Origin: Octopus vulgaris
Lineage: Eukaryota
Direction: 5' to 3'
Length of the DNA: 64,000 nucleotides
Assembly (NCBI GenBank): GCA_951406725.2
Contig: OX597841.1
Span: 8,122,001 to 8,186,000 of the forward strand
Shown here piece after piece: positions 30,897 through 60,439 of this stretch. How positions within the stretch are numbered: the stretch's first letter is position 1; the number at the start of each line of letters is the position of its first letter. Made by a program: the position numbers and the translations under genes. The notes beneath the pieces were generated by a model that saw nothing but the letters and a program-made list of their open reading frames with translations, did not search any database and was not told where the DNA came from.

Positions 30897-33800
30897 TTAT
30901 CTCTCATAATAAAATAATCCATCAAAACGGTTGTCCAAATTTCCGTAAATCATGATGAAATAATCCGAAACATGTATGGCCTTGATGTGACAGACTTCAA
31001 TTTCCTGAGAGCTGAGAAAGATTTCGCATTTGCTGTCTACAGATACTTGGTGGATATTGTTATTAAAATCTGATATGTAAATATTTTCGCCGTGGATGGT
31101 CAAGGATTTGTTGAAAATGTTTGGAAATGGTTCCTCACCTTGAATCATTAGTTGTTGACTTCTTACCCAATTGTCTCTGTACCAACATACATCGTAATGA
31201 TCTTCCTTGTACTTAAGAACGACAATGTCTTCATTCGATGTCACACCCATTGCTACAACCTTCCCCTCCTTCCCTAAATTCACTCGGCCCTTATACTCGT
31301 ACATTTCACCGCCAATGTGAAGTATGTCTGCGTATGTCCCATATGGAATATTACTACATTCATTTGGAGCGTCTTCAAACACACATACCAGATTTTGCCG
31401 TTCTTTTTGTACATTAAATTGTATGGTTTTTCAGTTGTGATCTTTTTTAAAAGACACAAATCTGTATCGAAGAACATCAGTTGTTTATCGTCCCGAAAGA
31501 GGACTACAAATGATTCATCGGTCCATTGACATATATCTTGAGCTTCTTTTTCAAATGTTTGACTGTAAAGCAGATGACCGTCTCCACTGGTGACCATGAG
31601 AGTACATTTATGGAGGAGCACGACGATACTATTGTCTTGTAACATAATTAGCTTAAAAGCATTAAGAAAACAAAACATCGAATTTGAATCTAGTAAACCA
31701 GATAGAGAAAATGAAAGCGGGAACATTGCTGTTCTATGTGGCAGTCTTCTCACTGATATTTCATCAATTCCTAACATACTTTCCGCTATGTAATTACCAC
31801 GTCTTACTTCTATTTCTCTTGATGTACTTCTTCTTTCTCCTCCATCGCCACCGTTTTTAAGTTTGTTAAATAATTCATTACTGAACATTCCCTTCTTCTT
31901 CTGAGATGTAATGGAAGGGAAGTGAAGGCCAAAATCAAGATTCGATAACGACATAGATTCCAGAACCTTCAGTTGGTCCCCATCAATTTTTATAGTATCA
32001 CATTCAATCATGTTGATATGTACACACCAGTAAATATTTCCCACTTTTCTCCATATTATACCATAAGGTACTCGACTTTCCCAAACTTTATATTTCTCCA
32101 AGTTTTGTGACTTCAGTTGAAATATTTCTTGTCTGTTAGGGAGTGTAACCAAGATATTTCTTTCTCCTGTAAAACATACACCACCAACAAAACTTCCAAA
32201 ATCTCTGTAACATAGCAACTTCCCGTCATCATCAAATAGTTTAACATTTCCACTATTGGCCATTTCGCACACAACTGTCTTTCCTTCATCAGAGATATCG
32301 ATATCTTTTACTTGAACAGGACAATTGTTTGTTTGTAACCGTGAAACGGGGAATTTTTGCCGATTAATCTTGTACAAACCTTCAATATATAAGTACGAGT
32401 CATAGTTTGCAACAATTCTCGGGCCTTTACAGTTAATACTGTTGAAATCCAACGGACGTTTATAATGTCTTTCATTTAAGAATATTCTCTTGTATTCACC
32501 GTTCTGCAACAATGAGACAATACGATACTTTTTCGTGTTTTCATAGATGTTCTTCCGTCCAGTAATGTACAAATAAGTATCATCGGTTGCCATAGAAATG
32601 GGTCGGGAATAAATACTGTGCTTAAATGAATATAAATATTGCCCGTTCGGGTTCAGAATAGTGATGAGCCTCTCGGTATTGACGATGATGTTGTCATTAG
32701 CAATAACTGAGATATGGGTGATATTATATCTGTAGCACATCCAAAATAAGTCTATTTCTCTCATAATACGGACAGCTGACTGTATTTCATCGATATATAT
32801 ATAAAACAGGCCGTTTTCAATTTCGGGTATGCGGGTACCACCACCAACATTACTGCTGCTACTACTACTACTACTACTACTACTACTACTACTACTACTA
32901 CTACTACTACTACTACTACTGCTTCTGCTGCTGCTGCTGCTGCTACACACCAGTAGATTGTCGGATCGACAAGCGATACAATTGTATCTATTTTCCGTGT
33001 GGTAAGTTGCCAAGACCAATGGGAATTCCACTTTTAATGTCAGCAGTTGATAGTTATTGGTCGTTATAACCAATGTGTTTGATCGCCAGCAACACATATG
33101 TCTAGGGACAACATTTAACTTGATAGAGTCAACAAGTTGACCATCAAAAGTTAATATCTTAATGTTTTCATTTGTGCTGTCATATAAAGCAACCAGGTTA
33201 TTTTCTGTAATAACCAAACAACCAATCTCCACTGGATGTTTATCTCCAAAACTTTGAGGGACAACAACTTCATGAGCTTTATCAGAAACTGTGAGATCTT
33301 GTAGATACAATCTAGAAGACAACATTTCACTGAGACTGATGTTTCTAGAAAATACATCTACCAGATCGATGAACATGTTAATTTGGCTTCTTGTGACATG
33401 ATCTTTCACCAGCAAGTCATGCTCATTTACAGCAAACATGCGGCTGTTGTCTATCAAATGGACACACATTTTATCAATACGTCCACCATAGAGATTGGAT
33501 TGTGTTTTCCCTTGCGACAGTAAAATATTGGGTATCATCTCAATGCTATAAGGACCACCGTCATAACCATAGAGATTGGAGGGTGTTTTCACTTGGGATG
33601 GTAAAACACTTCTTCTCCTCTTCCTGATGATCTTGTAGAAGAATACTGCTTTCTTACCAACAATCAATAGTTTTAGTGTTTCATTTTCTAACGATAATGA
33701 TTTCATTACAAAAGGAATATTAATTTTATGAATTATTTGAACTTGATTACAATTTTTAATGTTTAAAATATCTAAATGCGATGGTTTATCGCAATAACAA

Positions 33801-35763
33801 ATAATATGACTTTCACCCAGCTTACACACCCGTACATAAGCCTGGTTTAATGCTACACTTATAACTGCCTTTGATACGTTTCCGAAGACCCGTAATTGCT
33901 TCTCTAGAGGTAATGTGACGCCTATCTGATTATAATTCCATCGACATATATCTGTAGCTGTAGACGGCAGAGATAATCTAGACACAATGTTCCCTTCGTT
34001 GGAAATGTATAACAAACAATCATTATATATGTCGGACAACACCAACTGTCCATTTGCCAGATGACATATTTCACCAATGAGAACTTGGTCATTCTCCTTT
34101 TCTTCGAGTCGAATATTTAGATTTTTATTATAAGGGTTTTGAAAGGTTACATGACAGTCTGACCAGTCATGGTACTTGTAAAGAAGAATCCGACTGAGCA
34201 GATCGTCCAGCACATAAGCTGTTCCTTGGAAAACAGCAGCGTGACAGCGAAAGTTTGAAGGAAGTTTCAACTGCCATTTCCTTTGTCCAGTTATATTGTA
34301 ACAAGTCATCAAAGACTCTCTCCTGAAGATAACATAGAAGTATAATTTGTCTGTGAAAACATGATGAGGATAGCCATTGAACTCAATGTGTTTCTTGGAA
34401 AGCTCCTCACCAAAGCTTGAATAAAATAACAAGTTACGTTTCTTTCTGTCTACAACTACAAAATTAATTGGAGTAGCAGCAATGGCGACATTGTCATGTT
34501 CCAATGAAATTCTGTTTACAATGTCGACATGATCCTTTTTAATCAATAAAATATGTACCTCCACTTTACCTTCATTGGTGGTCAGAGCCAAACACCTATT
34601 TGATACCATATGACACATTTGAATGTAATTGTTTTCGACGTCTATTAAATCACCTTCAGTTAGTTGTGGACAGGTAATATACTGAAGTTTCCTGTCCTCA
34701 CTAAAAAGGACAAGAAATGTGTTCGAATCCACTCTGCAGAAAACAGAAGGCTGGAGTTTAAAGGTTAAACATTTTCCACCAAACGGTTGCCCTTCGTCAG
34801 TAACTAATATAGCTTTTAGATCCCGATATATAATTACTACTGAAGAGGCTGACATAGGTAGAATCGTTGTAATGTTGGAGGGGTCATCAATATGGATTTG
34901 GTTTATCAGGCTCGGGACATGGTCTTGGTGATGGTAAGACAGCCGAGGCCAAAAATCTTTATTTGTCCTAATAATATGTGCAAGACCAAAACGGTCAGTC
35001 AAGTAAATATTATTTGTTGCCACACAAATATATCGAGCTTTTATCCCAATTTCTCTTTGGGACACAGCACCGTTTGCTGAAATCTTGTAAATTACATTTC
35101 CTTGCAGAGCGTAAGAATAATTTCGATATACGGTGAGGTCGGTTGGAATATCGATGGAATGGGTCCTCAACTGAAACAAGTGTCTGCCATCTATTGTGTA
35201 ACAGCTAATTCTATTTATATTAGCTAAGGCTATTAAGATATGATACTGTGGACCAACTGCTATGTTTCCAACAATTTCTTGCACACTAAATTTTTCTTCA
35301 AATTTATTTTTATCCCAGTCTATGAGATATATTGTCTTACTAAACATTTCAGTCCCTACAAATGTAGAATGTTCGAAATAGGAAATTGTAAAGAAACTAT
35401 AATCCAGAGATTTTATGTGGAAACTTGATGGATTAATGAAAACTATTTTCTTGCGGAAAGGAATTGTGGCTAGAACAGTGTGTTCACCAATTCTTGTCAT
35501 GTCTGTGACATTAGAAGAACAATGAAAATCAAAATCACCGCCTGTTGTGGCACAACTTATTAACTTCAAATCTGGTGAATAGGTTACTATTCCATTGCAG
35601 ATTTCAACGATTCTTGAAACTGTGACCAGGTTCTTGGAATCATTATCGGAGTCTGTGAGCTGCAATATTTTGGACACAGCTGGGCAAAGGGGACGGAATT
35701 TGGATGAATGCGACTTCATAATACTTTTACAGTCAAAACGTGGTATCTGCATGTAGTGATCAT
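30897..35763 (-). CDS. Giant terminal exon of the ANK-RING (Mind-bomb-like) gene: six tandem NHL/TRIM-like beta-propeller units, with a 1-nt frameshift at ~31395
   Basis: Acceptor gttattcAG at 35764-35765, phase 1 (G+AT = Asp, DHYMQIPRF), matches the upstream mini-exon. A 1490-aa ORF continues in the overlapping 161-aa ORF. Six repeated units begin near aa 46, 294, 559, 843, 1148 and 1365 with a pattern like I..i.....++v.d.....+...G.......p.d+C......+.V..p.... The fold call is by eye. Confidence 0.8.
32852..32944 (-). repeat. Coding (AGT)n/(AGC)n microsatellite encoding a poly-Ser tract
   Basis: In-frame trinucleotide run giving ~30 Ser within the large ORF. Confidence 0.95.
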
Positions 35764-59656: not shown

Positions 59657-60226
59657 TATTATATAAAAGAAATGTGACAGAGAGCTGTTTCAGGCAGAAT
59701 TCTTCATGGAATGGACAAGATGTATTTATTATCATGGCCCCAGCACTATAAATGTTACTGTCTATCATATGAACCTCTCTTCTACCCAGTATCATTGTTA
59801 ATTCAGAATAATATCTCCTGTCTTGAATAGATCATTTCTCCTTCAAATTTTGATGACCGTGTTTGTATGGCCAACATTCGAGATGGATCACCTTCTCTAC
59901 CATGGAGAGGTCGTGCCTTTGAGGACGGAAGGGGACGGAATAGAGAATAGTGTTTGTTACATAATAATATAACTAAGGGTTACCATTGTGACTGGATCAG
60001 GAAATGGTAATGGAGGATGGGGTTGGTAGGTGAGAATTGCGATATAAACAATGTCTGTTTCTGTCTGTCTTTCTCTGTCAGTTTGTCTATTTTACACACA
60101 CACAGACGCACAAATGCACACACACACACACACACACACACACACACACACACACACACAGACGCACAAATGCACACACACACACACACACACACACACA
60201 TAGTCACAAACAATGTGAAAACTTAC

Positions 60227-60439
60227 CTGATCTAACATGGTCATGTGCTCCACCTCTGAATGAAAGTTGTTTTCTCTTTTTAACGCCAGATGCAGGCAAT
60301 TATTTCCTCCATGTTCGACAACATTTACATTCGCGCCCCTGGCTATCAGCCGCTGCATTATTCCGAGGTGACCGTCCGAAACAGCTTCAAGCAATGGTGT
60401 CCTATATTCTTTGTTCACAATTTCTAAATTCACCGAATC
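60227..60439 (-). CDS. Ankyrin-repeat exon of the Mind-bomb (MIB2)-like gene (DSVNLEIVNKEYRTPLLEAVSDGHLGIMQRLIARGANVNVVEHGGNNCLHLALKR...MLDQ)
   Basis: ccacaaAG / GTaagt; 213 nt, phase 0-0; canonical ankyrin consensus (TPL..A...GH..+...L+..GA.VN.....G...LH.A). Upstream exons lie beyond the window. Confidence 0.93.

Follow-up and report, generated by a model that had tools for sequence, protein, structure and literature searches.

A putative chimeric octopus gene joining MIB2-like ankyrin-RING exons to a six-propeller exon

Exons and transcripts of the locus

We analysed a 64,000-nucleotide (nt) stretch of the Octopus vulgaris genome (assembly GCA_951406725.2, contig OX597841.1, positions 8,122,001 to 8,186,000 of the forward strand; here, the window), whose minus strand carries six exons coding for ankyrin (ANK) repeats, a RING, two short linker exons with a QT motif and six predicted beta-propeller units. 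A reading of the sequence alone (the original prediction) had taken them for a MIB-derived E3 ubiquitin ligase of new architecture; as a whole, what it observed was partly confirmed and its interpretation partly supported. All six exons lie where it had placed them; they are bounded by AG/GT splice sites, their cumulative phases are 0, 2, 1, 1, 1, and joined they encode 1,834 amino acids (aa). The features are as follows.

60439-60227, minus strand, 213 nt: exon 1 as seen here, ankyrin repeat(s) homologous to the last ANK repeats of MIB2
56704-56526, minus strand, 179 nt: exon 2, MIB-type last ankyrin unit, ending in phase 2
47578-47436, minus strand, 143 nt: exon 3, RING homologous to MIB2 RING1, phase-1 donor
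40196-40146, minus strand, 51 nt: mini-exon 4, 17 codons, phase 1-1, QT motif DNEVQTE
39836-39783, minus strand: dead third mini-exon copy, with an in-frame stop and without a GT donor (absent from the original prediction)
38988-38938, minus strand, 51 nt: mini-exon 5, 17 codons, phase 1-1, second QT motif
35763-30897, minus strand: terminal big exon, 1,621 codons with a missing base restored, coding for six predicted propeller units
32851-32920: poly-Ser triplet microsatellite inside unit 4, about 29 serines (likewise newly noticed)
31390-31397, near 31392: 1-nt frameshift in a short homopolymer, in the window only (missed earlier)
30720-30725, minus strand: AATAAA downstream of the stop; RNA-like contigs cover 30700 and extend beyond

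Exon 1 matches Pfam Ank (E 1.6e-8) and is 100% identical to a protein of our collection, P0067 (P numbers denote such proteins throughout). No upstream ANK exon was found in 60440-64000, so that the 5' end of the gene lies outside the window or upstream exons are absent. Between the RING and the propeller module there are only the two 17-codon mini-exons, with no Death exon and no other mini-exon type of the family described below, and the phases agree from the RING donor to the module; the family Death profile found no match in the six frames of the window (best independent E-value, iE, 6). The duplication that gave mini-exon 5 included the adjoining intron sequence (about 82% over 500 nt). 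Degenerate versions of the flank found ahead of each mini-exon also occur at 46013-46328, 41682-41726 and 39843-39967, and the RING-to-module region is built of decayed mini-exon units. Reading through the RING donor (47436-47314, minus strand) gives a hydrophobic stretch of about 20 residues and then a stop, which possibly encodes a tail-anchored ANK-RING isoform or may be due to chance.

The big exon had been described as a single one of about 1620 aa. Its six units and, in public sequencing runs, its 1,621 codons stood up, but in the window it is split over two frames, open at 35791-31283 and 31430-30900, and is not one open reading frame (ORF). One extra base was present behind 31392, at full depth, in all four public runs compared, which come from four studies under two organism labels and comprise three RNA-like runs and a single DNA-like one, and we therefore take the frame break for an assembly error or a private allele. 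Read through with an X at the break, the exon codes for 1,621 aa without stops. The reads of the runs are cut at the poly-Ser microsatellite, so the length there refers to the window only. None of the runs is recorded as RNA, and RNA-like is our guess, made for 14 of the 20 runs that carry the locus; the four were compared as contigs, which carry no strand, start or level information.

The splice links that the original prediction had proposed as a check, from 40146 to 38988 and from 38938 to 35763, were found with CT..AC ends in all three RNA-like runs and not in the DNA-like run, showing splicing in three studies and under two organism labels. A joint from 40146 directly to 35763, with a short side of 23 letters, was present in two of the three RNA-like runs and may represent exon skipping or a paralogue with one mini-exon. 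Upstream, the RING stands directly ahead of the module in four public models, P0187 (this locus), P0034, P0079 and P0185. The model P0187 begins only at a late Met of exon 1, skips the mini-exons, adds a false intron and is fused to an S6-kinase-like tail at 7812-400.

The six-propeller module and its octopod relatives

Pfam found nothing above cut-off on the big exon, and five paralogues were likewise without an NHL (PF01436) match. Six units of about 265 aa nevertheless emerged from profile self-matches (iE down to 4e-12) and from hhalign, for which the best unit pairs were U3-U6 (96.7%), U4-U6 (95.0%) and U4-U5 (86.6%), the remaining 12 of the 15 pairs giving 0.6-66%. The units are listed with their best structural matches by VIA-align (rmsd, root-mean-square deviation).

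35704-34928, minus strand: unit 1, predicted NHL-type six-bladed propeller; Brat NHL 4zlr, Z 21.4, rmsd 3.2, 240 aligned
34927-34157, minus strand: unit 2, predicted propeller; 3s9j, Z 17.9, rmsd 3.5, 253 aligned, model 277-533
34129-33317, minus strand: unit 3, predicted propeller; 3p5b, Z 16.6, rmsd 3.5, 218 aligned, model 547-809
33298-32462, minus strand: unit 4, predicted NHL-type propeller, modelled from paralogue P0059; 4zlr, Z 22.6, rmsd 3.1, 251 aligned
32449-31727, minus strand: unit 5, irregular, a repeat unit rich in beta structure but with a helical segment of low confidence
31699-30900, minus strand: unit 6, predicted propeller, folded on P0059; 4hiz, Z 16.9, rmsd 3.9, 272 aligned, model 575-882

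AlphaFold2 predicted residues 1-810 of the window module as almost entirely beta, with a mean predicted local distance difference test score (pLDDT) of 74.1; for P0059, which covers units 4-6, the mean was 68.9. The best Foldseek matches of these models are tandem-propeller proteins. With VIA-align, NHL domains rank first for units 1 and 4, other six-bladed propellers following near behind, and propellers of other kinds match units 2, 3 and 6. Thus, the predicted structure agrees with the propeller repeats originally proposed, apart from the irregular unit 5, which had no separate propeller match in the four VIA lists and gave no evidence of a new fold. Unit 6, which spans the frameshift of the window, is the least conserved unit. 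In the ESM Atlas, features of the module match molluscan NHL clusters at 0.91, a weak match (low recognition 1601).

Units 1 and 4 resemble the NHL propellers of TRIM-NHL proteins (Brat, TRIM2/3, TRIM71, Mei-P26, Thin; Z 20-22.6), which also have a RING upstream. Unlike these, the window has six units instead of one, an identity of 8-14%, no Pfam NHL match, no B-box, coiled coil or filamin domain, and a RING derived from MIB2. TRIM-NHL is not a unique fold match either, since the six-bladed propellers of PknD, phytase and PAL lie within 1-2 Z. Because several of the top NHL entries are, by title, RNA complexes, RNA is a possible ligand of the module by analogy; fold sharing in itself shows no function.

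A search with the module returned 64 proteins of 820-2,611 aa, 62 from Octopus and two from Argonauta. Most are about 50% identical to it, have no ANK-RING and carry a variable N-terminus that is predicted to be helical; the whole module is homologous to these stand-alone proteins, annotated as 'uncharacterized' (e.g. P0005-P0021 and P0053/54 of Argonauta), at about 38-57% identity, the N-terminus and the absence of ANK-RING being what sets them apart from the window gene. Half of the matches (32/64) share a 29.19-Mb record with P0187, with accession numbers on either side of it. When 1.84 billion representatives were searched with a profile, 27 matched, and the strong named ones among them are from Octopus or Argonauta; this taxonomic statement rests on the named matches, P0202, P0204 and P0207 being left out and P0208 and P0211 having no name. 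No decapodiform match appeared among the 27, which may reflect database content. A cephalopod range, as originally suggested, is not supported, the named strong matches being from Octopus and Argonauta only. The best named match outside octopods is a bivalve RING/B-box-like protein, P0209 (E 2e-4), and a JGI protein named as a serine/threonine kinase, P0210, matched the profile at E 3.5e-4.

In a quick tree of 40 rows, which leaves out P0034 and short rows, the window module groups with P0001, P0003 and P0004 (SH-like approximate likelihood ratio test, SH-aLRT, 100; stem 0.31 substitutions). This clade is sister to a stand-alone pair from O. bimaculoides and O. sinensis (SH-aLRT 96) and is thus nested among stand-alone genes; no O. 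bimaculoides member of it appeared. Copies of the module, 96-99% identical over long matches, lie on at least three O. vulgaris records, preceded by differing upstream exons at the same junction. A profile of the paralogues' helical N-terminus detected no remnant upstream of 35763, and the ESM Atlas returned only leads under 0.9 for that region.

Three further proteins, P0198, P0212 and P0213, represent a distant (about 30%) six-unit paralogue found in three Octopus species on the largest records, a candidate for the ancestral single-copy gene. In P0001, which lies on a 176-Mb record, the module follows an N-terminus of unrelated sequence. Among the other public models, P0002 is a double module of 2,526 aa, P0022 a fusion with a C2H2 zinc finger, P0038 a fusion derived from a transposon and P0127 an LRR-ANK arrangement; these five odd fusions may be annotation artefacts.

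The MIB2-derived scaffold, its RING and its linker

Over 193 columns, exons 1-3 are 39% identical to residues 653-844 of the canonical Octopus MIB2, P0219 (E 3e-38), in agreement with the MIB origin originally proposed, and the human MIB1 ANK structure 8v0e covers profile positions 3-115. An ANK-RING profile gave 610 matches, and models of an Octopus ANK-RING family make up 72 of the 120 matches listed; six further cluster members were added to give 78, a count that includes isoforms and possible haplotigs. The tail is Death-like in 58 of the 78 (Pfam Death was confirmed on P0080), a read-through of a mini-exon donor in six, the propeller module in four, the MIB RING2 in two and something else in three, the RING being absent from five. 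An expanded family with differing C-terminal modules, as foreseen, is therefore present. The number of QT mini-exons between RING and tail varies across it, and the ANK and RING exons of the window match its members at up to 100, 98 and 96% (P0067). In short, the Octopus 'MIB2-like' ANK-RING-Death models share the ANK and RING exons and the phase-1 linker with the window gene, which has the propeller exon in place of the Death domain.

Among 46 distinct exon triples, 60 pairs have an exon 1 similarity of 85% or more, and in 34 of these the similarity in exon 3 is no higher than 55%. This mosaicism fits exon-level recombination, or else mis-joined models. It is seen in the proteins P0065-P0156, among them RING hybrids that differ in the last loop (P0088, P0098, P0156).

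Exon 3 passes the cut-off for Pfam zf-C3HC4_3 (E 3e-11), and its local score was 113 against MIB2 RING1 and 47 against RING2. Its zinc ligand 4 is Asp (PCGD) instead of His, which leaves the eight-ligand C3-H-C4 pattern incomplete; Asp stands at this position in five of the 42 distinct family RINGs. As in MIB1 and MIB2, the last ankyrins are followed by a homologue of the first RING, and the family members P0105 and P0117 keep RING1 and RING2. The window gene, in contrast, has neither the C-terminal catalytic RING (MIB1 RING3, MIB2 RING2) nor the coiled coil, and RING1 is followed by QT mini-exons and six propellers; a scan of long paralogue models showed no MZM-REP (Mib-Herc2, ZZ, SH3-like), and the window gene has its 5' end outside the window. 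According to one study (10.1101/2024.03.01.582834), human MIB1 constructs with RING1-2 but without the coiled-coil RING3 show no self-ubiquitination, RING3 drives dimerisation, and the second RING of MIB2 equals RING3. Because the RING is a RING1 homologue, not a terminal catalytic RING, and has lost the His at zinc ligand 4, the label of E3 ligase is doubtful. Judged from sequence, the ANK-RING product probably has no intrinsic ligase activity, and the RING of the window would sooner be inactive than active.

The LC8 consensus is [DS]Kx[TVI]Q[TV][DE] according to PMC3078936, and DNEVQTE of the window fits it at all positions but -3. In the 46 of 71 family proteins in which the RING was found by regex, strict LC8-type motifs numbered 4 (0.015 in shuffled sequences) and loose ones 37 (0.38 in shuffled sequences); since the sequences are related, these are not counts of independent events. 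The LC8-type linker of the original prediction is weakly supported, by family-wide enrichment, the copies in the window having Asn at -3. We slightly favour LC8 binding by the mini-exon linker.

Origin, rival readings and possible function

The gene likely joins two expanded octopus families, the MIB2-derived ANK-RING-QT family and the six-propeller family. Capture of the module onto a MIB-like ANK-RING scaffold at a phase-1 junction, as originally proposed, is supported by these data. Retroposition is not, as the module is a member of a family that resides on this very record; since the window shares its record with many stand-alone six-propeller genes, exon capture at the DNA level is favoured, and no poly(A) tract was seen by eye in 29400-30760. 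Our working model, which we hold tentatively and at somewhat less than even confidence, is that of a recent chimeric octopus gene whose product would be a cytoplasmic binding scaffold with a probably inactive RING, a likely LC8 linker and six predicted propellers.

Several observations weigh against this model. The RING of the window ends in CPVCR, as do active IAP RINGs, and cIAP and XIAP RINGs are its best matches in the PDB, its nearest solved relatives; the canonical MIB2 RING1 has CIQCK at this place, and Arg follows the last Cys in 15 of the 42 distinct family RINGs. Pro and Arg of the RING end play a role in E2 activation. The gene could then encode an active multivalent E3 ligase, as originally proposed, in which RING1 gained activity, LC8 provides the dimer and the propellers choose substrates as in TRIM-NHL proteins; P0209, whose C-terminal propeller-like region is a weak relative of unit 3 (hhalign 85%, at the E value above), would suit this idea. 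Yet the RING is homologous to the one that is inactive in human MIB1 (10.1101/2024.03.01.582834) and has Asp at zinc ligand 4, and the coiled coil and terminal RING have been lost; we regard an active ligase as unlikely. The window motif, moreover, has Asn at -3, where Lys or Arg is preferred (PMC3078936), which counts against the LC8 linker.

As for the transcript, the run comparison, which covered the mini-exons and the big exon but not the RING donor at 47436, showed no loose end at 40196. These runs also include contigs in which intron sequence is attached ahead of an exon resembling mini-exon 4 (depth 33, 68 and 7). Four O. sinensis models of other copies begin within a mini-exon or shortly before one: P0184 and P0205 with a Met inside it, P0004 and P0188 with an N-terminus other than a RING. 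The RING-bearing public models are predictions, P0187 being visibly wrong elsewhere. The intron-bearing contigs and the RING-less models would suit a propeller-only gene, with transcripts that begin near the mini-exons as borrowed first exons and ANK-RING exons that form a separate or truncated unit. So would the annotation of ANK-RING and module as separate genes on one 338-kb contig of O. sinensis, the late Met of P0187 together with the lack of an upstream ANK exon in the window, and the six of 78 family models that end by read-through of a mini-exon donor. However, the window mini-exons contain no Met, mini-exon 4 has an ordinary AG acceptor whose phase agrees with that of the RING donor, and the contig with intron sequence is not identical to this locus and may come from the 3' untranslated region of a paralogue. 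A propeller-only gene seems improbable, and a full fusion transcript from the RING to the big exon quite likely. Finally, segmental duplication in repeat-rich DNA might have left the locus as a by-product that is transcribed without being under selection: several other copies of the module are truncated in public models (P0184, P0205, P0079, P0185, P0186, P0188), although some breaks are possibly assembly errors; 11 of the 17 coding differences in an incomplete list change the residue, although paralogues may be mixed in; and poly-Ser has expanded. Against this, no frame-breaking indel across 1,621 codons was among the differences listed in the runs, all six units were kept along a branch of 0.31 substitutions, and splicing was seen in three studies and under two organism labels. 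We consider the by-product very unlikely.

Under the working model of a chimeric scaffold, an ANK-RING-mini-exon segment, whose tail in the family is normally a phase-1 Death exon, would have been placed ahead of a six-propeller gene already resident there and would have taken over its phase-1 acceptor, displacing the helical N-terminus; retroposition would not be needed. Near-identical copies of the module may later have spread to further ANK-RING loci. LC8 would dimerise the linker, standing in for the lost coiled coil of MIB and giving twelve propellers per dimer, and the propellers could bind protein or RNA ligands with avidity. ANK-RING1 might couple ligand binding to the partners of the Death-domain paralogues, beside which the product would act as an adaptor or decoy, most plausibly in immune or stress surveillance. 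An immune role, which we put at an even chance, is proposed by analogy with the expansions of death-domain, ankyrin and propeller proteins in marine invertebrates (PMC8195603 and PMC8917759) and because of fast turnover. The TRADD-N families and oyster IAPs described there are likewise fast-changing mixes of death-like, ankyrin, propeller and ubiquitin-system domains, but have other core domains, and TRADD-N domains are reported to be few or none in cephalopods (PMC8195603).

More speculatively, and in our view improbably, the locus may belong to an exon-cassette system that provides octopus with intracellular receptors and in which MIB2-derived ANK, RING and linker exons of few types are recombined between loci. 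Dimerisation would be adjusted by the number of LC8-binding mini-exons, which varies through alternative splicing; ligase activity would be switched on or off by the type of RING; and the phase-1 terminal exon (Death, RING2, six propellers or none) would be exchangeable. The window would then be a capture event that joined a second expanded family to a combinatorial immune-type repertoire.

The architecture is new within a known pattern of lineage-specific modular expansions, its parts being known folds. No description of either family or of the architecture was found in the open literature, subscription papers and some supplements lying outside this scope, and a term search of PMC9068888 and PMC9795677 gave no mention of the families. 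Two 'MIB2-like' peptides in the accessible part of the supplement of PMC10138644 match none of our collected proteins, and six accessions are absent from that part. The RING family of PMC13218726 is described from decapods only. What emerges are two large octopod gene families, masked in public annotation as 'MIB2-like' or 'uncharacterized', and an apparently recent phase-1 exon capture between them. Little is known about innate immunity and intracellular sensing in octopus, and both families are concrete, testable candidates for these processes. The gene may also serve as a natural experiment in the reuse of the auxiliary RING1 of MIB and in the replacement of a coiled coil by LC8 arrays. In practical terms, the public model of the locus needs correction of its false intron and its fusion to the S6-kinase-like tail.

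That tail corresponds to four exons on the minus strand (7812-7708, 5498-5391, 3546-3448 and 606-400), which, from their motifs, we take to be S6-kinase-like. A motif scan of the window revealed no kinase-domain exons; the tail may be a partial copy, or exons may have been lost near the N gap at 20955-21054. A tandem array at 22717-23710 consists of units of about 120 nt that are 92-97% alike and is related to a repeat at 13538-13727. By eye, ORF-like fragments of LINE/Penelope-type retroelements lie at 43839-44597 (minus strand), 61445-61882, 27794-28427, 1165-1464 and 13163-13654. The sequence at 38152-38475 is a very high-copy interspersed repeat, with a depth thousands of times that of its flanks in all four runs.

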